DNA from: an uncultured bacterium
Lineage (GTDB): Bacteria; UBP4; UBA4092
Direction of reading: 5' to 3'
Assembly: GCA_963768165.1 (NCBI GenBank)
Contig: CAVYHJ010000002.1
Span: 195,283 to 259,282 of the forward strand
DNA: 64,000 nucleotides
Below are positions 7,259 to 39,497 of this stretch, in pieces. The translations under genes were made by a program, and so were the position numbers. Numbering within the stretch: position 1 is the stretch's first letter; every line of letters begins with the position of its first letter. A model generated the notes under the pieces. The model was not told the DNA's origin. It saw only the letters and a program-made list of their open reading frames with translations, and did not search any database.

Positions 7259-7512
7259 TATTTAGATAGAGCAATGCATCCTTCACCGCATCCTTGTCAT
7301 TCTGAGCGCAGCGAAGAATCCCTGTGTTCTACTCCCATATTATAGATTCAATGCGTCGGGAATTTTAGTGTTCTTTACGGTATTCCTGATGCATCTTTTA
7401 AAAAGGTTAAATTGTGATTGACATGATTAATTTCGTATGATAACCTTACGTTTCGTGTGGTAGGCGAAAATTTGATTTTTCCACATATTAACTCTAAAGG
7501 GAGGTAGTCGTT

Positions 7513-11016: not shown

Positions 11017-11237
11017 ATAAAAAACGCTCGAAAGGCACGTTCCCTTCGAGCGGTTATTGCCACCACTAAAAGCGCTATGTTAGAAACGTCCACTGTCTCT
11101 CCCACGCCTGCGGGGTTAGCTGTTGGGTTCGGGTTGAAAAGTAACCCTGCGCGTTTCCGCGATTCACCCCCTGACATCGGTTCCCCCGTCTCTTGCGAGC
11201 TCGGCGATCTTTCGTGGGATTCTTATTCCAAATTTAA
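11017..11237 (-). promoter_or_regulatory. Candidate c-di-AMP (ydaO/kimA-type) riboswitch leader, copy A, with intrinsic terminator
   Basis: Conserved core shared with three other copies (RNA sense ...GGGGGAACC...GGGGUGAAUC-CGCG-GAAA-CGCG-CAGGGUUACUUUUCAACCCGAACCC..CAGCUAACC..GCAGGCGUGGG); 3' hairpin CGCUCGAAGG/CUUUCGAGCG plus U-run at 11017-11055; extended -10 TGATATAAT at 11245-11253; start codon 10996 about 20 nt past the U-run. Confidence 0.6.
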
Positions 11238-11986: not shown

Positions 11987-12080
11987 GGGCTAAAGCCCTG
12001 AGAACCGTGCACTAAAGTGCCGTAGAAGAAACAATCCTTCTACCCTGCTTTAGCAGAGGGTTACTGGACTTTAGTCCAAA
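11987..12080. repeat. Interspersed double-hairpin palindromic repeat (family R1), copy 1
   Basis: Halves GGGCTAAAGCCC..GCACTAAAGTGCCGTAGAAGAA and CTTCTACCC..GCTTTAGC..GGACTTTAGTCC; same family at 14083-14186 and 25597-25686. Confidence 0.6.
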
Positions 12081-12183: not shown

Positions 12184-12663
12184 ATGAAAAAAACAGTTTC
12201 AATAATTTTGAATATACTTTCTTTGCTATCAATGTTTTTCAGTATTTTATGGACTTTTGTAATGTCATTGTTGTTATTCCGATGTTTACTTTATCCTGTA
12301 AAGTTTTCTGTGCAAAAAGATTCCCTAACTAATGGAATTTTTTATCGTTTTGTAGCTGCATATCCTATCTCTTTTTGCTTGATTGGAATTATTGCATTTC
12401 TCGGCCAGTTAGTCGTGTCTTTTGGGGTTTTAAAAAGGTTTAAATGGGGACTGTATGGGGTAAGAATTATTCTATTTCTTTTTCTCATAGCTGATATAAT
12501 CTATGATTATAGCAATCTAACCTATATTGATATTAACATTGGATTGATTGTATTCTTGTTAATTTTCTTTTATCTCCCCATCGTCAAAAGCCTGTTTGAA
12601 AAGCAACCCCCGATTCCCAGCGAACCCACCCCCTCTTTCCCCCCTCCCGCCAGTGCCGGATAA
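12184..12663 (+). CDS. Polytopic membrane protein with Pro-rich C-terminal tail, tandem paralog 1
   Basis: 159 aa; C-terminus FLPIVKSLFEKQPPIPSEPTPSFPPPASAG nearly identical to next gene; 5' region (CCCTCCCGCCAG..TAATAACCCTCACTGAA..ATAGATAGAGATG) also duplicated. Confidence 0.45.
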   Translation: MKKTVSIILNILSLLSMFFSILWTFVMSLLLFRCLLYPVKFSVQKDSLTNGIFYRFVAAYPISFCLIGIIAFLGQLVVSFGVLKRFKWGLYGVRIILFLFLIADIIYDYSNLTYIDINIGLIVFLLIFFYLPIVKSLFEKQPPIPSEPTPSFPPPASAG

Positions 12664-12722: not shown

Positions 12723-13268
12723 ATGAAAAAAGCTATAACCATAATAATGTACCTTCTCGCTGTCCTTTGTATCTTGTTCAGTGTGATAGGTCTTTATCAA
12801 GGAATATCCTTTTTATCTGTATTATTCTTTCTCCCAGATTCAGTTTGGTATGAAATAAAAAGCGTGGGGATTCACTCGTCCTCATCAGTCATACACACGC
12901 AGAGTGTCTTACAATGTTTTCTAGATATTATTTTTGGTATCATTCAGTTTTTTGGATTTATAGGGGTATTACAGAAAAAGAAATGGGGATTGTATTGTGT
13001 TCAGGTAGTCTTGATTACTAGTTTTATTGACTTGATTCTGACAATGATAGATTATTACTCGGTAATTCAACCGATGATGAAACAACAAGGGGGCAATGTT
13101 CATTTGTTGATAGGCGGAAATCAATGGAAATTTATAAGGGGATTTGTCTTGGAAATCATCCTCTTGGTTTTCTTTTTCCTCCCCATCGTCAAAAGCCTGT
13201 TTGAAAAGCAACCCCCGATTTCCAGCGAACCCGTCCCCTCTTTCCCCCCTCCCGCCAGCGTCGGATAA
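12723..13268 (+). CDS. Polytopic membrane protein with Pro-rich C-terminal tail, tandem paralog 2
   Basis: 181 aa; same conserved C-terminal tail and duplicated 5' region. Confidence 0.45.
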   Translation: MKKAITIIMYLLAVLCILFSVIGLYQGISFLSVLFFLPDSVWYEIKSVGIHSSSSVIHTQSVLQCFLDIIFGIIQFFGFIGVLQKKKWGLYCVQVVLITSFIDLILTMIDYYSVIQPMMKQQGGNVHLLIGGNQWKFIRGFVLEIILLVFFFLPIVKSLFEKQPPISSEPVPSFPPPASVG

Positions 13269-13303
13269 GCGAACTAATAGCGAATATGCACCGAACCAGA
13301 AGC

Positions 13304-13346
13304 GGAGCTGGTGTGGAGGTGAAAATTTCACCTCCACACCAGCTCC
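13304..13346. other. Perfect 19-bp-stem palindrome
   Basis: GGAGCTGGTGTGGAGGTGAAAATTTCACCTCCACACCAGCTCC between convergent genes. Confidence 0.6.
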
Positions 13347-13414
13347 ACTCCATATTCGGTTCAAAAAGAGTTTTGAAACATAGACCCGACCACCTTCTGC
13401 GTCCATATCCTCCC

Positions 13415-13442
13415 GTAGAGACGTAACATGTTACGTCTCTAC
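13415..13442. other. Perfect 28-nt palindrome
   Basis: GTAGAGACGTAACATGTTACGTCTCTAC; no adjacent T-run. Confidence 0.6.
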
Positions 13443-13460
13443 AGAGGAATAGGGGTGGTC

Positions 13461-13937
13461 TTAATGGGTTAGCAGATAATTGGAAACAAACAAGTTATGC
13501 CCGGAATCTTGCAATCCTTTGGCTTTTTCATCCCAAATTGCCTTTTGTGCGGGAGACAGAGACTGCCAAGCTGATTGGGCAGGGCTCATTTTCCCTCTTT
13601 GTGCCTGTTGGAGAGGGGTGCGGGGGTTCGCCCCTTCTTCGTAATCCCGGGCATACTGTGTCCCGGTTTTCCCGACGACTTGATAGGTTAATCCCTTGAA
13701 TTTCCCATGCGCCTGCAAAGAATCCAACGGGAATTGTTCGACAATGAGAACCACATCCCCGCCCAGAACCGATTGGGGAATGGAACCCAATATCCTTTTA
13801 ACTTTGGCAGGTTTCACCGTAATCCCTTCCGGTTGAAACGCAGATTGCAACGCTTTCAGTAATATTTTTTCGACCTCTTTCCCACGAAACACCTGAATCA
13901 CCTTGTTTTTAGGTTTGCGATATATATTCGTTGGCAT
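13461..13937 (-). CDS. Hypothetical protein
   Basis: 158-aa ORF with GGAGG-like RBS; no recognisable motif. Confidence 0.35.
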   Translation of the reverse strand: MPTNIYRKPKNKVIQVFRGKEVEKILLKALQSAFQPEGITVKPAKVKRILGSIPQSVLGGDVVLIVEQFPLDSLQAHGKFKGLTYQVVGKTGTQYARDYEEGANPRTPLQQAQRGKMSPAQSAWQSLSPAQKAIWDEKAKGLQDSGHNLFVSNYLLTH

Positions 13938-14030: not shown

Positions 14031-14050
14031 GTCGAGTCGGGAGACTCGAC
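14031..14050. repeat. Short hairpin repeat (family R2) GTCGAGTC-GGGA-GACTCGAC
   Basis: Identical hairpin also at 21546-21565 and 22151-22170. Confidence 0.55.
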
Positions 14051-14082
14051 CTATCGGATGTAGAATTCATTATGAAGTAAAT

Positions 14083-14186
14083 CTTCTACCCGGCTTTAGC
14101 CGAGGGTTTCTGGACTTTAGTCCAAACATTTCAGAAGAGAATGGGCTAAAGCCCAAAGAACCGTACACTAAAGTGTCGTAGAAGAA
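14083..14186. repeat. Interspersed double-hairpin palindromic repeat (family R1), copy 2
   Basis: CTTCTACCCGGCTTTAGCCGAGGG..GGACTTTAGTCC...GGGCTAAAGCCC..ACACTAAAGTGTCGTAGAAGAA. Confidence 0.6.
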
Positions 14187-14195
14187 TAGATTTAT

Positions 14196-21481: not shown

Positions 21482-21585
21482 AATCGTTTGTCCTTTATTT
21501 TTTCCTCAATGACTCTAATATACCATAGAAATAGTTTCAAAGGCAGTCGAGTCGGGAGACTCGATCTAAAAAAGATTTACTTCAG

Positions 21586-21695
21586 GTAGAACACAGGGAT
21601 TCTTCGCTCCGTAAAAAGCACTACGCTCAGAATGACAAATTTGGAGGCGGTGGGGATTGAGTCGGGGAAGAGATAAGAAACGGGTTGTTGCTGAT
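21586..21695. repeat. Composite repeat (R3+R4), copy 2
   Basis: GGTAGAACACAGGGATTCTTCGCTCCGTAAAAAGCACTACGCTCAGAATGACA...GTCGGGGAAGAGATAAGAAACGGGTTGTTG. Confidence 0.55.
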
Positions 21696-21702
21696 TAGGA
21701 TT

Positions 21703-22083
21703 TTATTCTTTTGGGTTATCCTTGAACAGGTTATATAACAAGGGGTAAGCTGGTTTCCATTTTGTTTCTATTAATGTAACGTTGTCAAAGATGAATAAAG
21801 TTAAGATGAATCTGTAAACTATCTCAAAAACAAGTATAATTGGAATTAATAAAATAATGACCTCAAGCGGGTTTAGAATATTCACAAATTGCAATGTAAA
21901 TAAAACAATTAATATAATGACTAGACTTATTGCTTCTACTATTATAATCCCTTTACGCCAAGCTTGCGCCCAGTAGACTTTATGACATTTTGGGCATTGC
22001 AAATGATATCTATATAGTGTGGGAAGCATTTCCCAATTAGAAACACTATGTCCACATGCCGGACAGGGTCTGGAAAATTTCAT
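21703..22083 (-). CDS. Zinc-ribbon membrane protein (paralog of 17701..18039)
   Basis: MKFSRPCPACGH...CPKCHK followed by two TM segments. Confidence 0.45.
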   Translation of the reverse strand: MKFSRPCPACGHSVSNWEMLPTLYRYHLQCPKCHKVYWAQAWRKGIIIVEAISLVIILIVLFTLQFVNILNPLEVIILLIPIILVFEIVYRFILTLFIFDNVTLIETKWKPAYPLLYNLFKDNPKE

Positions 22084-22326
22084 ATCAAATTCCTTTTCAT
22101 TTCCAAACGCAGATTATAGCATTAGTGGAGGGCGGCGGGAATAGTAAAGTGTCGAGTCGGGAGACTCGACCTATCGGATAGAGGAATGGTCAAAACCAAT
22201 TTCTTACGAATATCATAAGTCGTATTGATTTAAACAAAAAGTAAGCGTAATATAATGGGGTTCAGACCATGGAAATTATCATTCACCCACGATATGATAC
22301 CGGGGATTTATTCAGGAGGGCAGGTC

Positions 22327-22956
22327 ATGAAACGCTTGATTTGTTTGTTAACAATCACTCTTAGTATAGGTTTTGTAACGCAATTATGTTGGGGTTACTC
22401 CTCATCGGAATTGATAATTCCGCCATCCGCCAGAGTACCCGGGTCTGTATCCAGCCAAGATACTTCCGCAAATACGCCCCCAATACGAAACTATGTTAGC
22501 GAACTTCCATCTTCTTTTAAAAAGGATGCCAATGAAATTTATAATTTTTCCGTTAAAAGTCTGGAAGGTAAATATACCCACATGGGGGACTATAAAGGGA
22601 AAGTCATCGTGGTCAATTTCTGGGAATCCACCTGTTATCCAAGTTATCTGGAATTGTTCAAAATCGAAAGCTTGGCTAATTTTGACAAGAGAAAAGAAGT
22701 GGTCATTATATGTGTCGCCGAGGATGACGAGAAACTCCTACTTCATTATAAGGACAAAATCCCCCAGCTTTCATTCCCCATCTTTACTTATAACCAGTTT
22801 GATATACCGGATGCGCTGGAACATGAATATGTCCCCACCACGTTTATCATCAACCAGAACGGTAAAATTATACTGGCAGAATCCGGTATCATTGAAGGTT
22901 TCCAACTATGGGAAGAAATCCAAAAACTCCTTCCCCACAAACCAAACACCAAGTAA
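22327..22956 (+). CDS. Thioredoxin-fold (TlpA/redoxin-like) protein with single-Cys site
   Basis: Start set at MKRLICLL (AGGAGGG RBS); VVNFWESTCYPS aligns with the WxxWCxxC redoxin site but the second Cys is Ser. Confidence 0.5.
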   Translation: MKRLICLLTITLSIGFVTQLCWGYSSSELIIPPSARVPGSVSSQDTSANTPPIRNYVSELPSSFKKDANEIYNFSVKSLEGKYTHMGDYKGKVIVVNFWESTCYPSYLELFKIESLANFDKRKEVVIICVAEDDEKLLLHYKDKIPQLSFPIFTYNQFDIPDALEHEYVPTTFIINQNGKIILAESGIIEGFQLWEEIQKLLPHKPNTK

Positions 22957-23022
22957 CGAGAGATTCTTCGCTCCGTAAAGAGCACTACGCTCAGAATGAC
23001 AATTTTGGGGGTGGTGGGGATG

Positions 23023-25002
23023 CTATTTGGTTTTGGCGGAGTAGTTGTAGATAGCCAGCGAGATGACGCTGAGGAAGGATTCGAGGAGATAGTCCTGTTC
23101 TTGCGAGAGGAACTGAGAATCCTGCGGACGACCGATAGCGAGGACGCCGACAATATCGTTTTTGACGTTCAAGGGGATAAAGCGCCACGCGGAAGAGGAG
23201 AGAGTCTGGGTCTCCCGACCGGCAAGTTCCTTGTGCTCAAATACCCATAAAGCGATAGTCATTTCGTGACTATTAAATTTCACAGAGTCACCGGTTTGGG
23301 AGCGGATAGTGAGTTTACCGGTTTTGTCGGGAAGCAGGAGCGCCGAGTCACAGGCGAACATTTCGGAAATGTCCGAACTGATTCTATCGAGCAAATCAAT
23401 AAACCCGATAGCGTGATACAAATCCTGGCTGAATTCATTGAGCAACGAAATGTACCGCACCTGGGTGCGGGAAGATTCCGATTGCCGTTTGAGACGGTCG
23501 GCAAGGAGACTTGTCACAATGCCGACTAAAAACATGACAAAGAACGTGGGCAGATAACTCATATCGCTGACTGTAAAAGTGAAAATCGGCGGAACAAAAA
23601 AGAAATCGAAACAAAGCACGCTCAACAGGGATGCGACCAGACCGCCGATGAGTCCGCGATAAATCCCTGACAGAATCACGGGAATGATGAATAAAAGGGC
23701 AACATTCGTGAGACCGATGTAAGAATGAAGAGGAAAGCAAATGAGAGTGGTTGCGCCCACGATGGCAAGGCTCATAAGATAGGAACGCCAATCAAGAACG
23801 AGATTGCTTCGTCGCTGCGCTCCTCGCAATGACAAAGGTTGTGGTGACGATTCGCCACCGACTACCAAGACTTGAATAGGATTGCTTTTATCAATAATCT
23901 GGTTCAAGAGTGACCCGCGTATCATTCTACGAAACCGGGATTGGCCGGAGAAACCAACAATAATCAACGAGGCATTTTTTGAACGGGCAAACCGCACGAC
24001 TTCATCGGCAGGCTGGTTGCTGGAAAGACGGACAATTTTCCCGCCCAATTCTTTGGCGAGATTAAAATTCTTCTCCAACTGTTTAGCCCTTTGCGGGTCG
24101 AGCGTAGTTTGCACCTGTGGTTCGACATAGACCGCAAACCAATCGGCTTTTAAATCTTCCGCCAACCGATGTGCCACGCGGACGGGTTGTTCGGACAAGG
24201 GACTCGGACTGATACATACCATAATCCGGGTGCCGACGGGCCAGGGACCTTTAATGCCCTGCAATTGCATGTAAGAGAGCATGGCATCGTCCACGTGCTT
24301 GGCGGTATAGCGCAGGGCTAATTCGCGGAGCGCGAGCAAAGTGCCTTCTTTAAAATAATTCTGGGAGGCGAGTTTCGCCATATTGGCCATGTAGACTTTA
24401 CCTTCGGTTAAGCGCTGGAGAAGTTCTTCCACGGGAAGGTCTACGAGAGCAATTTTATCCGCCAGTTCCAGAATGCGGTCGGGGACGGTTTCCTTCACTT
24501 CAATTTTGGTAATTTGATAAATAATGTCATTGACACTTTCAATATGCTGGATGTTCAAGGTGGTGTAGACACTGATACCGTTATTGAGGAGTTCTTCAAT
24601 ATCTTGAAACCGTTTTACATGGCGTGACCCGGGGACATTGGTATGCGCCAATTCATCCACCAGAACATATTTGGGTTTGCGCTTAAGAATATAGTCCAGG
24701 TTAAACTCATCCAAGACCATACCCTGATATTCTATTTTCAGGAGGGGAGAACGTTCCAATCCAAAAATCAACTGTTCGGTTTCGGCACGACCATGGGTTT
24801 CGACAATGCCGATAATGATATCTTCGCCCTTTTGTTTGATCGCCTGGGCTTCCTGCAACATGCGGTAGGTCTTGCCGACACCGGCCACGTACCCTAAGAA
24901 TATTTTAAGAAATCCCCGGGTGCGATGCTGCTGTTCCTGTTCTTTATTAAACAGGTTCAGCAGTTGATCCGGATCGGGGCGATTTTGATTCTGTTCAACC
25001 AT
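23023..25002 (-). CDS. kdpD: KdpD sensor protein lacking histidine-kinase domains
   Basis: N-terminal P-loop GVGKTY, USP-like region, 4-TM block and GAF-like C-terminus; ends at 659 aa with no H-box or HATPase motifs; directly downstream of kdpC. Confidence 0.75.
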   Translation of the reverse strand: MVEQNQNRPDPDQLLNLFNKEQEQQHRTRGFLKIFLGYVAGVGKTYRMLQEAQAIKQKGEDIIIGIVETHGRAETEQLIFGLERSPLLKIEYQGMVLDEFNLDYILKRKPKYVLVDELAHTNVPGSRHVKRFQDIEELLNNGISVYTTLNIQHIESVNDIIYQITKIEVKETVPDRILELADKIALVDLPVEELLQRLTEGKVYMANMAKLASQNYFKEGTLLALRELALRYTAKHVDDAMLSYMQLQGIKGPWPVGTRIMVCISPSPLSEQPVRVAHRLAEDLKADWFAVYVEPQVQTTLDPQRAKQLEKNFNLAKELGGKIVRLSSNQPADEVVRFARSKNASLIIVGFSGQSRFRRMIRGSLLNQIIDKSNPIQVLVVGGESSPQPLSLRGAQRRSNLVLDWRSYLMSLAIVGATTLICFPLHSYIGLTNVALLFIIPVILSGIYRGLIGGLVASLLSVLCFDFFFVPPIFTFTVSDMSYLPTFFVMFLVGIVTSLLADRLKRQSESSRTQVRYISLLNEFSQDLYHAIGFIDLLDRISSDISEMFACDSALLLPDKTGKLTIRSQTGDSVKFNSHEMTIALWVFEHKELAGRETQTLSSSAWRFIPLNVKNDIVGVLAIGRPQDSQFLSQEQDYLLESFLSVISLAIYNYSAKTK

Positions 25003-25596: not shown

Positions 25597-25686
25597 TTAA
25601 TAACTTCTACCCGACTTTAGTCGAGGGTTCGGGGACTTCAGTCCCAATTTAAGGGCTAAAGCCCTAAGAACCGTGGACTAAAGTCC
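25597..25686. repeat. Interspersed double-hairpin palindromic repeat (family R1), copy 3
   Basis: CTTCTACCCGACTTTAGTCGAGGG..GGACTTCAGTCC..GGGCTAAAGCCC..GGACTAAAGTCCCGTAGAAGAA between kdpC and kdpB. Confidence 0.6.
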
Positions 25687-25702
25687 CGTAGAAGAAAATA
25701 TG

Positions 25703-27739
25703 TTATGCCCAACCTAATACAACGATGAGCATGTCAATTAGTTTGATACCGATGAAGGGAAGAAGCACTCCGCCCAACCCATATACCAGTAAATTCATTT
25801 TCAAGAACGAGGAAACGGAAACGGCACGTAATTTGACGCCCCTCAATGCCAACGGGATTAAGAACAAAATAATAATCGCGTTGAAAATGACGGCGGACAA
25901 AATCGCACTCCCAGGATTATTTAACCTCATCACATTCAGAATATTCAACTGCGGATAAGCGACCGCAAACATTGCCGGAACGATGGCGAAATATTTCGAG
26001 ACATCGTTGGCAATACTAAAAGTAGTAAGCGCGCCACGCGTGATAAGGATTTGTTTTCCGACTTCCACAATATCGAGAAGTTTCGTGGGATTGGAATCCA
26101 AATCAATCATATTGGATGCTTCCCGCGCCACCTGCGTGCCTGCATTCATAGCGACCGCGACATCGGCTTGCGCGAGAGCGGGTGCGTCATTAGTCCCGTC
26201 TCCAATCATCGCGACAAGGTTACCGTCCTCTTGTGCCTTGCGAATTAATGCCAATTTGGTTTCGGGTTTGGCCTGAGCAACGAAATCATCCAGCCCGGCT
26301 TCCGCGGCAATCGAAGCAGCGGTGAGCGGGTTATCGCCGGTAATCATGGTGGATTTGATACCCATTTCACGGAGTTGCGCGAGACGAGCTTTAATGCCTT
26401 GTTTCAGAACGTCTTTGAGACGAATCACGCCAAGAACTCTTTTCCCGTCAGAAACGACCAAAGGCGTATTACCTTGTTTGGCGAACCCTTCCACGATGTC
26501 CTTGACTCCGGCAGGGATTGTGGCATTGGACTGTTTCAGAAATTCTTCAATCGCGTCCAAGGAACCCTTGCGGATTTTTTTGCCATCAATATCAATCCCG
26601 CTCATGCGTGTTTCGGGAGTGAAAGGTACGAACACGGCACCTTCGGGAGCACGGATATCGCTTCCCTTGATACCTTTTTCGGTTTTACAGAGGGTTACAA
26701 TACTTCTGCCTTCGGGAGTTTCATCGGATAGTGAGGATAACAAGGCACAGTCCACCAATTCTGCTTTTTCAACTCCAGCAGAAGGAACCAAATCGGTTGC
26801 CATACGATTGCCGAGAGTGATGGTACCCGTCTTATCGAGCAAGACGATATTGACATCGCCTGCCGCTTCTACCGCACGACCGCTCAGAGCGATGACGTTG
26901 TGTTGTAATAGTCTATCCATCCCTGCGATACCGATAGCGGGAAGTAAACCGCCAATGGTGGTCGGCATGAGGCATACCAAGAGAGAAATCAATATCGGGA
27001 CGGTGGTCGCGATACCCAAATAATTGGCATAGGTGGGCAGGACGATAACGACGATTAGGAACAACACTGTGATGCCGACAAGGAGAATTTCTAAAGCGAT
27101 TTCATTGGGTGTCTTTTGACGTTTCGCGCCTTCGACCATAGAAATCATGCTATCGAGGAATGTCTCACCGGCATTCGCCGTGATACGGATTTTGATATGT
27201 CCCGATAATAGTTTGGTTCCACCAGTCACGCCACTGCGGTCACCACCGGATTCCCGAATCACGGGAGCGGATTCACCAGTGATGGCAGATTCGTCCACAA
27301 GAGCGACGCCTTCGATAATTTCTCCATCACCGGGAATGACTTCCCCTTCAATAACCAGAATCAAATCGCCTTTGCGAAGATCCAAGGCGGATACTTTTTC
27401 TTTCGCTCCACTTTCCAATATTTTAAGAGCAAAGAGTTCGCTGCGTGCTTTCCGCAAAGATTCCGCACGTGCTTTCCCTTGAATTTCCGCCAAGGCTTCC
27501 GAGAAGGTGGCGAAAAGAACGGTCACCCAGAGCCAAAGGGTAATTTGCAAATTAAACCCGAAACTGGCATGATGGGTGATATTGATTACCGTGATGATAG
27601 TGGTAATCACAGCGCCGATTTCAACGACCAACATTACGAGATTGCGCCATAATAAAAAGGGATTTAATTTTTTAATAGCTTCCTGCAATCCCTTGAACAG
27701 AAAGTCCGCTTGAAATATACTTCGTTTCGTTTGTGCCAT
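25703..27739 (-). CDS. kdpB: K+-transporting P-type ATPase subunit KdpB (operon 1)
   Basis: P-type motifs [21 protein letters not shown]; 678 aa. Confidence 0.95.
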
Positions 27740-27806
27740 ATATTATCTCCTTAGAACCACCACCCCCTTCCCCCTCCTTAATTAAGGAGGGGGACTGAGG
27801 GAGTGA

Positions 27807-29507
27807 TTAAAATGTTTTTCCTTGCAACATGAATAAATGTTCCAACACGGGACCGAGGGTGAATGCCGGGAAATAGGTCAATGCGCCGACAATAAAGACT
27901 ACGCAAACCAGCATAGCGACAAATAACCAGCCGGTGGTTGGAAATGTAGCCAAACTGGTAGGAACAATCTTTTTCCTGACCAGTGCTCCGGCAATAGCCA
28001 GTCCTGGAATGAGGGTGGAAAATCGTCCAACCAACATGGTGGCGCCACCGGTTAAATTATAAAACACGGTATTGGCGTTAAGTCCGGCAAACGCGGAACC
28101 GTTATTCCCACCATAGGATAAAAAGGCATATAACACTTCCGACCAACCGTGGGCGGAGGGATTATTCATGCTGGACAATCCGGTGGCGGTAATCATAGCG
28201 AATGCCGCAAAGATTTTAAGAACAATGGGCGCTGCCAAAATTGCAATCACCGTCCAAATCATTTCATAAGGACCAAGTTTCTTGCCAAGATATTCAGGGG
28301 TACGTCCGATCATCAATCCAGCAATAAACATAGTGGCGAAGACATAGAAAAACATTCCGATGAGTCCGACACCCAATCCGCCGAAGATGACTTCCCCAGT
28401 GCATAAGTTAAACATATAGACTAGACCCGTGAGGGGGAGCATACTGTCGTGCATAGAGTTCACGGAGCCGTTGGAAGTGACGGTGGTCATGTGTCCCCAT
28501 GCAGCAGAATTGATAATCCCAAAACGGGCTTCTTTGCCTTCCATATTCCCCCCAACCAGATGCAACTTATCGAAAAAGGGGTTACCCTGGGTTTCGCTAT
28601 AGAATACTACGGCCAAACCTATAATAAATAGGGTTAACATGGAATAAAAGATGGCTTTGCCTTGACGGCTATCGCGTACCATAAAACCAAACATGAACAC
28701 TTGCGCGGTGGAAATGAAGAGAATTGCCATCATTTCAAAAATATTAGACAAGCCAGTGGCATTCTCAAAGGGATGCGCGGAGTTGACGTTGAAGAAACCG
28801 CCGCCATTAGTTCCCAACTGTTTAATGGCAATCTGTGAAGCTGCAGGACCAACGGCAATGGTTTGCGCACCGCCTTCCAATGTCTTTACTACCTCATACG
28901 GATGTAAGGTTTGAACGACACCTTGAGACACCAAAATGAGGGTAAGGATAATGCTCAATGGCAATAATATATATATTACAGAACGGGTCATATCCACCCA
29001 GTAATTGCCTATCTTGTCGGTATCTTTGCGAATAAATCCGCGAATCATGGCGACCATGACTGCCATCCCCATCGCGGGGGTAACGAAATTATGTACCGTG
29101 AGTCCCAGCATTTGGGTGAGATAACTCAGGGTACTTTCCCCGCCATACGCCTGCCAGTTGGTATTGGTGACAAAAGAGATGGCGGTATTTAATGCCAAAT
29201 CCCAACGGACGGCAGCGAATTTTTGCGGATTCAAAGGCAGATGCCCTTGAAGAAGCTGCAATAAAAATAAAGCGGCGAGAAATATTACATTGAACCAGAA
29301 TACCGCCCAGGCATAAGTTTTCCAGTTCATTTCTTCGGATTCATTGACGCCGCAGAGACGGTATATTCCACGCTCAAGAGGTTTTAAGAACCCGCTGAGA
29401 AATGTCCATTCTCCGTTATACACCCGGAACATATATTTCCCTGTCGGGATGGACAGGAAAAACATGATTGCCAAGGCAACAACAACTACAATCATATCTA
29501 TTAACAT
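27807..29507 (-). CDS. kdpA: K+-transporting ATPase subunit KdpA (operon 1)
   Basis: 566-aa polytopic protein with KdpA-typical GTNGGGFF selectivity-filter-like motifs. Confidence 0.9.
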   Translation of the reverse strand: MLIDMIVVVVALAIMFFLSIPTGKYMFRVYNGEWTFLSGFLKPLERGIYRLCGVNESEEMNWKTYAWAVFWFNVIFLAALFLLQLLQGHLPLNPQKFAAVRWDLALNTAISFVTNTNWQAYGGESTLSYLTQMLGLTVHNFVTPAMGMAVMVAMIRGFIRKDTDKIGNYWVDMTRSVIYILLPLSIILTLILVSQGVVQTLHPYEVVKTLEGGAQTIAVGPAASQIAIKQLGTNGGGFFNVNSAHPFENATGLSNIFEMMAILFISTAQVFMFGFMVRDSRQGKAIFYSMLTLFIIGLAVVFYSETQGNPFFDKLHLVGGNMEGKEARFGIINSAAWGHMTTVTSNGSVNSMHDSMLPLTGLVYMFNLCTGEVIFGGLGVGLIGMFFYVFATMFIAGLMIGRTPEYLGKKLGPYEMIWTVIAILAAPIVLKIFAAFAMITATGLSSMNNPSAHGWSEVLYAFLSYGGNNGSAFAGLNANTVFYNLTGGATMLVGRFSTLIPGLAIAGALVRKKIVPTSLATFPTTGWLFVAMLVCVVFIVGALTYFPAFTLGPVLEHLFMLQGKTF

Positions 29508-29737: not shown

Positions 29738-29896
29738 TAAATAAAAAACCCACTCACTCTTCCACGCCTACGAGGTTAGCTGACGGGCTCGGGTTGAAAA
29801 GTAACCCTACGCTTTCGCGATTAGCCCCAACTTCCGGTTCCCCCGTATCTTTCGAATTCGGCGAACTTAAGTGGTAATACTGCTATATTTTTCTAC
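29738..29896 (-). promoter_or_regulatory. Candidate c-di-AMP (ydaO/kimA-type) riboswitch leader, copy B
   Basis: Same conserved core as copies A, C, D; internal GNRA-capped hairpin CGC-GAAA-GCG; 3' tail GAGUGAGUGGGUUUUUUAU. Confidence 0.6.
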
Positions 29897-30729: not shown

Positions 30730-32793
30730 TTAAGCCCAACCTAAAGATACAATGAGCATGTCTATGAGTTTAATACCGATAAATGGTAATATCACACCAC
30801 CCAACCCATAAATTAACAAGTTTCTCTTCAAGAAAGCAGAAACTGTAGTGAGTCGTAACTTGACCCCTTTCAATGCCAAAGGAACCAAACAAAGAATGAT
30901 AATGGCATTGAAGATAACAGCAGACAAAATCGCACTGTATGGGTTTGACAACCCCATCACGTTTAATATATTCAACTGTGGATAGGTAATTGCAAACATA
31001 GCCGGTATGATGGCGAAATACTTGGATACATCATTGGCTATGCTGAACGTGGTTAAAGCTCCACGGGTAATGAGAATTTGTTTACCCACTTCAACGATAT
31101 CCAATAGTTTGGTGGGATTGGAATCCAAATCCACCATATTGGAGGCTTCCCGTGCCACTTGAGTTCCGGCATTCATTGCTACCGCTACATCGGCTTGAGC
31201 CAGGGCAGGAGCATCATTGGTCCCATCCCCAATCATAGCGACCAAGTTCCCATCGGACTGATATTTGCGTATCAACTGTAATTTGGTTTCCGGTTTGGCT
31301 TGCGCTACAAAATCATCCAATCCAGCTTCTGCGGCAATAGACGAAGCAGTTAATGGATTGTCACCGGTAATCATAATCGACTTAATCCCCATCTCTCGTA
31401 GTTGTGCCAACCTGGCTTTGATACCTTGCTTTAATACATCTTTTAACCGGATGACCCCTATGATCTTTTTGCTATTTGCTACAACCAAAGGAGTATCGCC
31501 TTGTTTCGCAAATTCTTCGACTTTGTTTCTCACATCACTAGGGATACTGAAATGAGATGGGCGTATAAATTCTTCGATGGCATCAAGCGCTCCTTTTCGA
31601 ATCATTTTTCCATCAATATCTATTCCACTCATCCTGGATTCAGGTGTAAAAGGAACAAAAACCGCACCTTCGGGAGCCCGGATATCACTTCCTCTAATCC
31701 CTTTTTCAGTTTTACACAATGTTACTATGCTTCTTCCTTCCGGTGTTTCATCTGAAAGTGAAGATAATAAAGCGCATTCGGTCATTTCTTTTTTATCTAT
31801 CCCTGCCGCCGGGATCAATTCAGTCGCCATGCGGTTTCCTAGGGTGATCGTCCCGGTCTTATCCAACAGAACCACATTGACATCACCGGAAGCTTCTACG
31901 GCACGACCGCTAAGGGCGATCACATTGTGTTGCAATAATCTATCCATGCCAGCAATACCAATAGCCGGAAGTAATCCTCCGATCGTGGTGGGCATTAAGC
32001 AAACCAATAAGGAGATTAAGATTGGAATGGTAGTAACGATTCCCATATAACTGGCATAAGCGGGAAGGGTTACGACGACAATCACGAACAATACGGTTAT
32101 ACCAATCAGCATGATCTCCAAAGCGATTTCGCCGGGTGTTTTTTGCCGTTTCGCACTTTCCACCATTTTAATCATGCCATCCAGAAATGTTTCTCCAGGA
32201 TTGGCAGTAATTTTGATTTTGACTTTTCCAGAGATTAATTTTGTTCCTCCGGTTACCCCACTCCGGTCTCCTCCAGATTCTCGAATAACCGGAGCTGATT
32301 CTCCTGTTATGGCCGATTCATCGATTAAGGCAACACCTTCAACTATTTCACCATCTCCAGGAATTACATCTCCATCAGCGACTAAAATTATGTCGCCTTT
32401 GCGAAGAGACAGGGCAGATACAGTCTCTATGCTACCATTGTCCAACAATTTTTGGGCAGACAATTCGCTTCTGGCACGGCGTAAAGATTCAGCACGAGCT
32501 TTTCCCTGAATTTCAGCCAAGGCTTCCGAAAAGGTTGAGAAAATAACAGTAAACCACAACCAGAGGGAAATCTGTAAATTAAAGGAGAAACTGGTGTGAT
32601 GGGCAATACTGACGATGGTTACTACAGTAGTAACCATCGCGCCGATCTCCACAACCAGCATGACAATATTTCTCCATAGTGTAAAAGGATTTAATTTTAT
32701 TATGGATTCTTTCAATCCTTGTAACAAGAAATCCGCTTGAAATAGGTTTTGTTTTTTTTGTGTCATATGCAATCTCCTTATGCGTTGGGTCAT
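30730..32793 (-). CDS. kdpB: K+-transporting P-type ATPase subunit KdpB (operon 2)
   Basis: [17 protein letters not shown]; paralog of 25703..27739. Confidence 0.95.
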
Positions 32794-35427: not shown

Positions 35428-35590
35428 TCAATAAAAAACCCACTCACTCTTCCACGCCTGCGAGGTTAGCTGACGGGCTCGGGTTGAAAAGTAACCCTAC
35501 ACCTTGCGGTGATTCGCCCCAACTTTCGGTTCCCCCGCCTTTTTCAAGCTCGGCGAACTTAAGTGGTACTATTAAAATTCTATGTTATTT
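35428..35590 (-). promoter_or_regulatory. Candidate c-di-AMP (ydaO/kimA-type) riboswitch leader, copy C
   Basis: Conserved core; internal hairpin CACC-GCAA-GGUG covaries with GCGC-GCAA-GCGC (D), CGC-GAAA-GCG (B) and CGCG-GAAA-CGCG (A). Confidence 0.6.
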
Positions 35591-38097: not shown

Positions 38098-38261
38098 TAA
38101 ATAAAAAACCCACTCACTCTTCCACGCCTGCGAGGTTAGCTGACGGGCTCGGGTTGAAAAGTAACCCGGCGCTTGCGCGCTTCGCCCCTACTTCTTGGTT
38201 CCCCCGCCTCTTACGAGCTCGGCGAACTTAAGTGGTGCTAAGTTCTTGATTTAATTTTCTA
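38098..38261 (-). promoter_or_regulatory. Candidate c-di-AMP (ydaO/kimA-type) riboswitch leader, copy D
   Basis: Conserved core with GCGC-GCAA-GCGC hairpin; 3' tail GAGUGAGUGGGUUUUUUAU; M23 peptidase gene downstream. Confidence 0.6.
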
Positions 38262-38516: not shown

Positions 38517-39365
38517 ATGTGGCCATTAAGATATTTTGAGTCAAATACATGGGCTATTCCTGAGGTAGATAATTCACCTACGTGGGATGGTGTAATCTTT
38601 TTCATCCTAGCCATTTTGTTTTACTTTGAATTTTACAGATTTATATTAAATAAGACAGAGGGTACTCAGAAAACATGGTTAAAACAATGGGTAATTTTCG
38701 GTGCTATTTTTATAATCTCTAAATTACTCGATGCCGGTGCATTAACAAATTTTCTTGGGTATTCCGGTGGGATGATACTGGTTTTCCTAACAATTTCACT
38801 TATCCGAAAGATATGGTATTCATCAATTCGTCTATCCCAAAAATGGAAATGGACAGGAATCGGTCTTTTTTATACCTTGATAATAATTTTTTGTATATTG
38901 GGTTGGTGGTGTTCTTACGTATATTTTTTACCCGCCTCCTACCCACCGGAAGAAAGAGATCAATTGCGTATGATTCGTCGAATCATTGAAATTGAACCTC
39001 ACGGGGGTGACTTGGATAAGCCCATCATTCCTTTAACCGAAGCCCATTTGGTGTATGCGGGAAAAGAACTAATACCCGACTCAATTCGGTCCAATCTTGA
39101 ATATCAAGGTTATCATTATACTTTAATCACAAACAAAGCATATCAACCCGCATTATTTACTATTGATGCGGTTCCGATAAACGTTAAAAAGAGACAGAAA
39201 TCTTTCCATGCCTATCCGGTAAATCCTGAAGGACTAAAAGAAGATTTCAAACACGTCGGTTATTGCATCACAATGGCAAACCATGCAGGTGGACCTGCTA
39301 CCGATAAAGACCGCCATTTTCATGAAAAAGGGTATTGGTCTCTTTTAAAATATTACCTATTCTAA
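38517..39365 (+). CDS. Hypothetical polytopic membrane protein
   Basis: 282 aa with several TM segments. Confidence 0.4.
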   Translation: MWPLRYFESNTWAIPEVDNSPTWDGVIFFILAILFYFEFYRFILNKTEGTQKTWLKQWVIFGAIFIISKLLDAGALTNFLGYSGGMILVFLTISLIRKIWYSSIRLSQKWKWTGIGLFYTLIIIFCILGWWCSYVYFLPASYPPEERDQLRMIRRIIEIEPHGGDLDKPIIPLTEAHLVYAGKELIPDSIRSNLEYQGYHYTLITNKAYQPALFTIDAVPINVKKRQKSFHAYPVNPEGLKEDFKHVGYCITMANHAGGPATDKDRHFHEKGYWSLLKYYLF

Positions 39366-39497
39366 CCGTATCATGAGTGGAATTGTTATTTTCAATTCCA
39401 CTCCTAGTACTAAAGAAGATAGGATTTCCCCGCCAATTGACTATCATTTTCATGAAATGGTGGAAAGTTGGGCAATAATGTTAGAATAATAGGAGAT

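Follow-up and report, generated by a model that had tools for sequence, protein, structure and literature searches.

In a 64-kb stretch of DNA from an uncultured bacterium of the UBP4 lineage (contig CAVYHJ010000002.1; the whole stretch of 64,000 nt is referred to here as the window), two long perfect palindromes share the gap between a pair of convergent genes, and they are probably unrelated to each other. Palindrome 2 is likely a copy of a known family of repetitive extragenic palindromes (REPs), namely those associated with subclass 2.4 of the TnpAREP transposases, whereas palindrome 1 is likely this lineage's own stem-loop at the convergent junction. An original prediction, made from the sequence alone, had pointed to two unusually long perfect palindromes in a gap of approximately 190 bp; both sequences are exact, the gap measures 192 bp, and arms of 21 nt (palindrome 1) and 14 nt (palindrome 2) make them the top two perfect inverted repeats of the window (Table 1), compared with a longest perfect arm of at most 12 nt in 10 shuffled windows. 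The number of matches expected by chance in the window for the pattern of either palindrome is 0. The gap folds with energies of -91 and -106 kcal/mol on the two strands (z = -10.4 and -11.9, respectively, relative to shuffled sequences), and both palindromes are nested in longer imperfect inverted repeats, at approximately 13287-13363 and 13388-13460. The same prediction had placed both palindromes in a single class of element and had proposed sites of protein binding, RNA processing or recombination, with a search for further copies as the check. This search settled the identity of palindrome 2, for which it returned a family that crosses phyla; it returned none for palindrome 1. The idea of a protein-recognition or recombination-type site thus fits palindrome 2, as a putative REP, while the grouping of the two did not survive, since palindrome 2 is a dispersed repeat and palindrome 1 a local stem-loop that keeps its position in relatives and shows compensatory changes.

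The family of palindrome 2 was defined with the search pattern GTAGAGACG-N10-CGTCTCTAC, which was scanned against IMG/VR viral contigs and against one genome per species. The pattern matched 116 viral contigs (152 copies), compared with a single contig for a composition-matched scrambled palindrome in the same data, as well as at least 120 genome loci. The genome matches listed are mostly from Bacteroidota, with many from Cyanobacteria and others from Anaerolineae/Chloroflexota, Acidobacteriota, Ignavibacteriota, Spirochaetales, Zixibacteria, Planctomycetaceae, Desulfobacterota, Gracilibacteria, Cloacimonadota, Rhodobiaceae, Methylococcales, Binatia and further groups; among the matches listed, the family therefore occurs in over a dozen bacterial phyla, in addition to phages. 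The distance between the arms is constant (153 of 164 cases), and the central 10 nt, while present as 116 distinct sequences, are self-complementary, with covariation at pairs 10-19, 11-18 and 12-17 (four to five pair types each). Cells in which both sides of a pair have changed number 158, compared with 47 in shuffles; none of 500 shuffles reached the observed value, and the signal collapses in slid registers. Because the self-complementary centre covaries, the conserved object appears to be a hairpin of 12-14 bp in which the base is fixed and the tip free to vary. When the 116 other family members were used to build a covariance model, palindrome 2 received a score of 46.2 bits (E = 4e-17), with the next score in the window at 10.7 bits; the centre of palindrome 2, TAACATGTTA, is absent among these 116 other variants. 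With regard to position, 66% of family copies are intergenic, compared with 14% of random positions, and copies in genomes lie between convergent (27), co-directional (49) and, at depleted frequency, divergent (7) genes.

Additional evidence on the nature of the family comes from the genes that accompany it. All-against-all clustering of the open reading frames (ORFs) located within 4 kb of 280 copies yielded only shared phage structural genes and one further cluster, consisting of ORFs of approximately 200-220 aa that overlap the palindrome itself; no neighbour was universal, and a conserved neighbour gene of the family was accordingly rejected as a candidate. The ORFs of approximately 200-220 aa matched the NCBIfam model REP_Tyr_transpos (REP-associated tyrosine transposase, RAYT) with an E value of 2.7e-13, under the model cutoff, and weakly matched Pfam Y1_Tnp. 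This Y1-transposase gene is complete at six genome loci and present as a fragment at one, and the palindrome lies inside it, on both sides of it or a short distance upstream (Table 1). The protein has 2278 homologs, which carry the source names "REP element-mobilizing transposase RayT" or "Transposase IS200-like". Among the best 120 of these 2278 homologs, the motif RD....VST, which is the in-frame translation of the palindrome (mostly RDAMHCVST or RDAMHRVST), is found in 94; NH[IFV]H occurs in 113, WQ in 118 and YIxNNP in 87.

Quentin et al. (2018; PMC6006769) described REPs with a "double foot" (i.e., GT[AG]G at the 5' end and C[TC]AC at the 3' end) for TnpAREP subclass 2.4, which corresponds to RAYT group 4. 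In their survey, REP copies of this subclass are inserted in-frame between the HuH motif and the Y of tnpAREP, and the subclass is distributed over Cyanobacteria, Bacteroidetes and various other phyla; the authors also noted that a double foot could derive from an inverted REP dimer through a central deletion (PMC6006769). Table S1 of the same study lists, for Chloroflexus aggregans, the REP GTAGAGACGCACGGCCGTGCGTCTCTAC (28 nt, with a 12-bp stem and a 4-nt loop; PMC6006769). Palindrome 2, read directly, begins with GTAG and ends with CTAC, and it has the same 9-nt arms (GTAGAGACG) and the same length of 28 nt as the catalogued Chloroflexus REP. The compensatory changes that mark a double-foot REP are found across the family copies, and copies that flank tnpAREP or lie in-frame within it are found in other genomes, not in the window. 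Because these family traits fit both the published description and the Table S1 entry (PMC6006769), we conclude that palindrome 2 is, as judged from its sequence, a solo copy of the known 28-nt double-foot REP family that would be cognate to the Y1-HUH transposases of subclass 2.4.

Several side observations concern this family. The family is common in tailed-phage genomes, and many of the 116 viral contigs (L001-L116) have two to three copies, which lie in the head and packaging modules, next to genes for terminase, the major head protein, the head protease and neck proteins; we know of no earlier report of RAYT-type REPs in phages. Full copies are often flanked by one to three direct tandem half-copies (e.g., GTAGAGACGTTCAAT GTAGAGACGTTCACC GTAGAGACGTTCAATTGAACGTCTCTAC), and half-duplications are also found within the RayT proteins P0014, P0018 and P0030 (RRDAMHCVSTNDNNKDAMHCVST); these tandem half-copies may have been left by slippage or by the mechanism that makes the copies. 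In one phage contig (L023, 8300-8470), a copy lies in spacer position between three repeats that resemble those of clustered regularly interspaced short palindromic repeats (CRISPR; CGTTCCCCGCAAACGCGGGGATGAACCG type), with irregular spacers of 38 and 24 nt. Palindrome 2 does not form a regular array with unique spacers, as a CRISPR repeat would, since it has one copy in the window and the L023 copy is not itself the repeat. Copies nested in larger hairpins number 6 of 248 family-wide, with 1.4 expected, and nesting as a general habit of the family was rejected as this enrichment is slight. No Rfam family reached its gathering threshold (for Whalefall-1, RF01762, the score was 22.6 bits where 37 is required, and all other matches were spurious microRNA hairpins), Rfam did not match any of 14 viral loci with family copies, and a literature search by sequence string returned primer matches only. 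The window contains 0 sites of the highly iterated palindrome HIP1, which counts against a cyanobacterial origin, and searches with KdpA returned homologs with 77% identity (from a bacterium) and 64% identity (from Spirochaetota).

The local history of the palindrome 2 copy could be followed in relatives, which are short metagenome contigs that encode homologs of the 158-aa protein specified by the downstream convergent gene (e.g., L238, L321, L322/L323 and L324). Directly after the stop codon of this gene, the window has an imperfect hairpin with the REP at its tip, and this hairpin, the REP and a spacer make up a 100-nt block (Table 1). In L321 (68% identity), the block is present with the same outer and inner stems, and the loop CCTTAAGTAA takes the place of the 28-mer; with the 28-mer removed, the window aligns to L321 with a single 6-nt gap. 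Since L321 has the same stems without the 28-mer, the REP sits in the apical loop of an older hairpin. The 100-nt block is absent from L322/L323 as well as from L324 (66% identity), where ACCGAAT (equivalent to window positions 13360-13354) is found 1 nt past the stop codon, and it is apparently absent from L238, a contig that ends 17 nt past the stop codon. L238, the closest relative (82% identity), has a family copy of its own (GTAGAGACGTAGCATGCTACGTCTCTAC, 45.6 bits) 28 nt past the stop codon of an ankyrin gene; the window has no copy at the matching site, and this is the one further family copy in the 23 kb of relatives' contigs, at a site different from that in the window. Filled sites that differ between close relatives are expected of an element that is mobile or is often gained and lost. 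Past the stop codon of the 158-aa gene, the contigs L238, L239, L240 and L242 all end within 10-44 nt, and L239 and L241, which encode the same protein, diverge after 19 nt; this would fit breaks in assembly, or polymorphism, at inserts that are palindromic. Between kdpA and kdpB, the window has another perfect palindrome, TCCCCCTCCTTAATTAAGGAGGGGGA (27769-27794), and a near-identical sequence (CCCCCTCCTTAAGTAAGGAGGGG) is found in L321 (1061-1083) at the hairpin tip where the window has the REP.

Palindrome 1, which can be drawn as a hairpin of 19-20 bp with a loop of 3-5 nt, begins 36 nt after the stop codon of the upstream convergent gene. A search with its arms, at lengths of 12-15 nt, gave 0 further copies in the window and in the viral and metagenome contigs. 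L322/L323 have the identical 21-nt core GGAGGTGAAAATTTCACCTCC at the orthologous site, with the orthologous C-terminal coding region of the upstream gene recognisable in L322, and L324 has GGACGTG-TTATTTT-CACGTCC, in which a G-C pair is replaced by C-G in a compensatory change. The outer arms are complementary at 7 of 11 positions in L322/L323 and L324 and at 11 of 11 in the window, and perfect 21-bp arms are found in this genome only. Of 19 pairs, 6 have changes in both partners, and pairing holds in 89.5% of cells, a result reached by 1 of 500 shuffles. On this comparison, palindrome 1 is a position-conserved, apparently structure-selected stem-loop at the junction of a gene pair rather than a dispersed repeat. 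Its position and stability indicate that it is most likely a hairpin that acts at the RNA level, either as a terminator without a U-tract or in 3'-end protection.

A reading of palindrome 1 as a REP in its own right was also considered, in which the 25 nt at its centre (GTGG-AGGTGAAAATTTCACCT-CCAC) would represent a lineage-specific double-foot REP with a GTGG foot, kin to a hairpin at 39377-39401 and later extended. The window contains just three double-foot hairpins of at least 8 bp (the palindrome 1 core, palindrome 2 and 39377-39401), the first and last of these are equal in length (25 nt) and identical at 18 of 25 positions with compensatory stem differences (manual count), and a hairpin of the 39377 type is also present in a relative (L243), at another locus. 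The GTGG foot, however, is absent at the orthologous site (TCGGAGGTG in L322 and ACGGACGTG in L324), no other copy was found with arms of 12-15 nt in the window, viral or metagenome contigs, and matches to 9-nt arms have neither a preferred spacing nor a common loop and resemble unrelated hairpins of the Shine-Dalgarno (SD)/anti-SD type; the likeness of the two window hairpins could arise by chance, with a probability roughly estimated at 0.05-0.3. Palindrome 1 thus does not combine the conserved foot and dispersed copies expected of a GT[AG]G-footed REP, and we rate the idea low because the foot is not conserved in orthologs and the 9-nt-arm matches are mixed in spacing and loop. The hairpin GAGTGGAATTG-TTATTTT-CAATTCCACTC at 39375-39403 lies directly past the stop codon of ORF 38517-39365, and the same arms are found in L243 (4985-5017), between a homolog of the 158-aa gene and a convergent gene; this recurrence suggests another lineage-specific dispersed hairpin, with 0 matches to GAGTGGAATTG in the viral contigs.

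Three further explanations address palindrome 2 or both palindromes. Both could be plain factor-independent terminators, one per gene or as a bidirectional pair, in which the sequence matters only for stem stability; like Rho-independent terminators, both are very stable hairpins at 3' ends between convergent genes, copies of the REP family elsewhere are also biased to gene 3' ends, and a lax terminator scan listed palindrome 1, on the minus strand only, with the tail GCTTCTGGTT. This tail was judged not to be a real U-tract, however, and palindrome 2, which has no U-run on either strand, was not listed by the scan, so that neither palindrome has the immediate U-tract that follows the G+C-rich hairpin of an intrinsic terminator. 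Because other genes in the window do end in classical terminators with a hairpin and a T-run, the missing U-tract represents a real difference, and the statement in the original prediction that the palindromes lack a flanking U-run and are not canonical terminators was borne out. A plain terminator would also not be expected to have 18 fixed bases and a length of exactly 28 nt in phages and in more than a dozen phyla, at hundreds of loci altogether, nor to occur in-frame within transposase genes, and we thus regard this explanation as unlikely. Somewhat less probable still is a role of the hairpins as RNA processing signals, either with palindrome 1 as a substrate for RNase III (a perfect 21-bp duplex of approximately two helical turns) or with a sequestered SD-like element (GGAGGTG/CACCTCC). 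RNase III can act on a perfect duplex of this length, the conserved core matches an SD/anti-SD pair exactly, and the covariation indicates selection on structure; on the other hand, the imperfect outer arms of the relatives (7 of 11) indicate that what is conserved is not a perfect duplex of 20 bp, and there is no start codon at a usable distance after the SD-like arm. Finally, palindrome 2 could be a double-stranded DNA operator for a dimeric transcription factor or another protein that binds double-stranded DNA, with half-sites GTAGAGACG 10 bp apart. While its dyad symmetry is perfect and direct repeats of the half-site adjoin full copies at L111, L131, L134, L175, L192, L210 and L221, a duplex site does not need a self-complementary spacer, yet the central bases covary to pair. 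Moreover, no regulator gene recurs near the copies, with the Y1 transposase as the sole recurrent non-phage neighbour, and the range over phyla and phages fits a mobile element better than a regulon. We consider an operator highly improbable, the least credible of the explanations discussed here.

Against the reading that we favour, i.e., a subclass 2.4 REP copy next to an unrelated lineage-specific stem-loop, a number of points have to be weighed. The search pattern itself fixed the outer 9 bp, so conservation there is partly a matter of ascertainment, and the covariation of palindrome 1 comes from three distinct orthologous sequences only. The relatives, at 66-82% protein identity, have diverged too far for the insertion boundaries to be drawn cleanly, including at the L238 site. 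The 64-kb window has only one REP copy, which is extragenic, and neither palindrome recurs in it. To our knowledge, transposition of REPs by TnpAREP has never been shown in vivo for any family, and tblastn and profile hidden Markov model searches found no RAYT gene in the window. The published table also includes variant feet, e.g., GTAGGGGCG (PMC6006769).

If palindrome 2 is a subclass 2.4 REP copy, TnpAREP would be expected, by analogy with Escherichia coli TnpAREP and the TnpA of IS200/IS605 elements, to bind the folded REP hairpin on single-stranded DNA, to read the GTAG foot and to cut and rejoin there; as an enzyme that cuts and rejoins at a folded hairpin, it would therefore seed copies in trans. 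Comparison with the relatives shows that the copy in the window was inserted into an older hairpin, at its apical loop, just past the stop codon of the 158-aa gene. Given this position, the REP hairpin is presumably transcribed within the 3' untranslated region of that gene, and the nested hairpin (approximately -40 kcal/mol) could stop 3' exonucleases or keep polymerase from reading through. Palindrome 1, for which the arms appear to have turned perfect over 21 bp in this genome only, would, by its position and stability, act at the RNA level for both transcripts. A broader scenario, which we regard as doubtful although less so than any of the rival explanations above, is that the REP is a trans-mobilised hairpin that crosses phyla on phage genomes, seeds genomes that lack RAYT, prefers gene 3' ends and sometimes the loops of hairpins, and that the copy in the window is a recent arrival.

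With regard to annotation, these results amount to a clean-up, in that one palindrome would be assigned to a catalogued REP family and the other to a conserved local stem-loop, with no new class of signal. The presence of a common 9-bp foot (GTAGAGACG) in more than a dozen phyla and in tailed phages points to horizontal spread, possibly with phages as vectors. The lineage also gives a before-and-after view, with the hairpin of L321 lacking the REP and L238 (82% identity) carrying a REP at another site; we are aware of few cases in which REP movement has been caught by such a comparison. If REPs are indeed phage-borne, REP movement could be observed directly in metagenome populations, from which close relatives have the copy and which lack it. 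For specialists, the points of interest are the occurrence in phages and the differing sites among relatives, as well as the tandem half-copies at both the DNA and the protein level.

Table 1. Features of the convergent gap, RAYT-associated and tandem family loci, and other features of the window.
Feature	Position or loci	Strand	Details
Gap between convergent ORFs	13269-13460		192 bp; contains both palindromes
Palindrome 1	13304-13346	none	GGAGCTGGTGTGGAGGTGAAA-A-TTTCACCTCCACACCAGCTCC; 21+21 perfectly complementary bases around a single central A; 43 nt
Palindrome 1 inner core			GGAGGTG-loop-CACCTCC; same position in relatives
Extended imperfect inverted repeat around palindrome 1	13287-13363	none	38-nt arms, 84% complementary; folds agree
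Small A/T-rich hairpin	13360-13377	none	TTCAAAAAGAGTTTTGAA; between the palindromes; overlaps spacer of 100-nt block; from folds
100-nt block	13361-13460	-	Hairpin + REP + spacer GGGTCTATGTTTCAAAACTCTTTTTGA; from alignment and downstream sequences of relatives
Older imperfect hairpin with REP in apical loop	13388-13460	-	Outer stem GACCACC/GGTGGTC, inner stem TCCTC/GAGGA; from folds
Palindrome 2	13415-13442	none	Perfect 28-nt palindrome GTAGAGACGTAACATGTTACGTCTCTAC
Palindrome 2 layout			GTAG-AGACG-TAACATGTTA-CGTCT-CTAC; stem 12-14 bp
Upstream convergent gene	12723-13268	+	181-aa predicted membrane protein; no Pfam match; tandem paralog of 12184-12663
Downstream convergent gene	13461-13937	-	158-aa protein of unknown function; no Pfam match
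Palindrome inside RAYT gene	L128, L170, L194, L117		
Palindrome on both sides of RAYT gene	L129		
Palindrome upstream of RAYT gene	L151, L187		80-290 nt upstream
Loci with tandem half-copies	L004, L111, L131, L134, L175, L192, L210, L221, L233		
Composite dispersed repeat, three copies	11987-12080, 14040-14195, 25606-25697		Approximately 100 nt; always at gene 3' ends
Unit junctions of composite repeat	12022-12043, 14060-14089		GTAGAAG-loop-CTTCTAC
c-di-AMP (ydaO-type) riboswitches, four	11090-11216, 29750-29873, 35440-35565, 38110-38234	-	92-101 bits
kdpA	27807-29507		
kdpB	25703-27739		
Second kdpB-like gene	30730-32793		
KdpD	23023-25002		
Paralogous small membrane proteins, first tandem pair	11271-11591/11623-11934		No Pfam match
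Paralogous small membrane proteins, second tandem pair	12184-12663/12723-13268		No Pfam match
Motif CATTCTGAGCGCAGCGAAGAATC	7298-7320		
Diverged relatives of CATTCTGAGCGCAGCGAAGAATC in intergenic hairpins	~21570-21700, ~22960-23020		By ORFs 21703-22083 and 22255-22956

The 158-aa protein encoded downstream of the gap has homologs with 42-82% identity and one identical match; an identity as an IS200-type transposase was considered and ruled out, as the protein has no Pfam match and the profile search found no RAYT in the window. Among the other features of the window, the composite dispersed repeat has the termini CTTCTAC...GTAGAAG and four internal 12-nt mini-hairpins (NNNCT[AT][AT]AGNNN) spaced approximately 21 nt apart, for which the stems covary (GGGCTAAAGCCC, GGACTTTAGTCC, GCACTAAAGTGC, CGGCTTTAGCCG and CGACTTTAGTCG). 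Its unit junctions form another GTAG...CTAC hairpin, and the arrangement appears similar to bacterial interspersed mosaic elements (BIMEs) or to REPINs, the hairpin-forming REP doublets. Of the four cyclic di-AMP riboswitches, one precedes a gene for a 777-aa amino-acid permease and one precedes a kdp operon. The window holds two sets of kdp genes, kdpA with kdpB and the second kdpB-like gene, in addition to KdpD. The members of the second pair of small membrane proteins share a near-identical C-terminal tail (IVKSLFEKQPPI.SEP.PSFPPPAS), and CATTCTGAGCGCAGCGAAGAATC looks like another short dispersed repeat.

Palindrome 2 shares features with several known systems. Like the REPs and BIMEs of E. 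coli, which are associated with a TnpAREP of RAYT group 2, it is a short extragenic palindrome with GTAG, is found at gene 3' ends and belongs to a family linked to a Y1-HUH enzyme, and both occur in mosaic clusters with other motifs. E. coli REPs, however, have one unpaired GTAG foot, an imperfect, G+C-rich and bulged stem and hundreds of copies, whereas palindrome 2 is a perfect palindrome with a paired foot on both sides. The subterminal hairpins of IS200/IS605 elements may provide an analogy, as they are single-stranded DNA hairpins for a Y1-HUH transposase (TnpA) whose cleavage is guided by foot bases; unlike these, palindrome 2 has no insertion sequence body and no pair of left and right ends, is non-coding and measures 28 nt in all. 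REPINs and miniature inverted-repeat transposable elements (MITEs) are likewise non-autonomous, hairpin-forming, dispersed and intergenic, but palindrome 2 is far shorter than a REPIN (approximately 100 nt) or a MITE and has no visible target-site duplication. The small dispersed repeats of filamentous cyanobacteria, reportedly described by Elhai et al. in 2008, are said to be hairpin repeats of 21-27 nt with compensatory changes and nested insertions that are confined to cyanobacteria. Hairpin repeats, compensatory changes and nested insertions are common to both, and many family matches are in Nostocales, while the family of palindrome 2 spans many phyla. With regard to the double-foot REPs of subclass 2.4 (PMC6006769), the copy in the window differs in being single, in having no tnpAREP within 64 kb and in its nested location in the loop of another hairpin; the two agree in the GTAG/CTAC feet, the length of 28 nt, the 12-bp stem, the 4-nt loop and the GTAGAGACG arms, and the family as a whole matches these REPs in taxonomic range and in its in-frame seats within tnpAREP genes.

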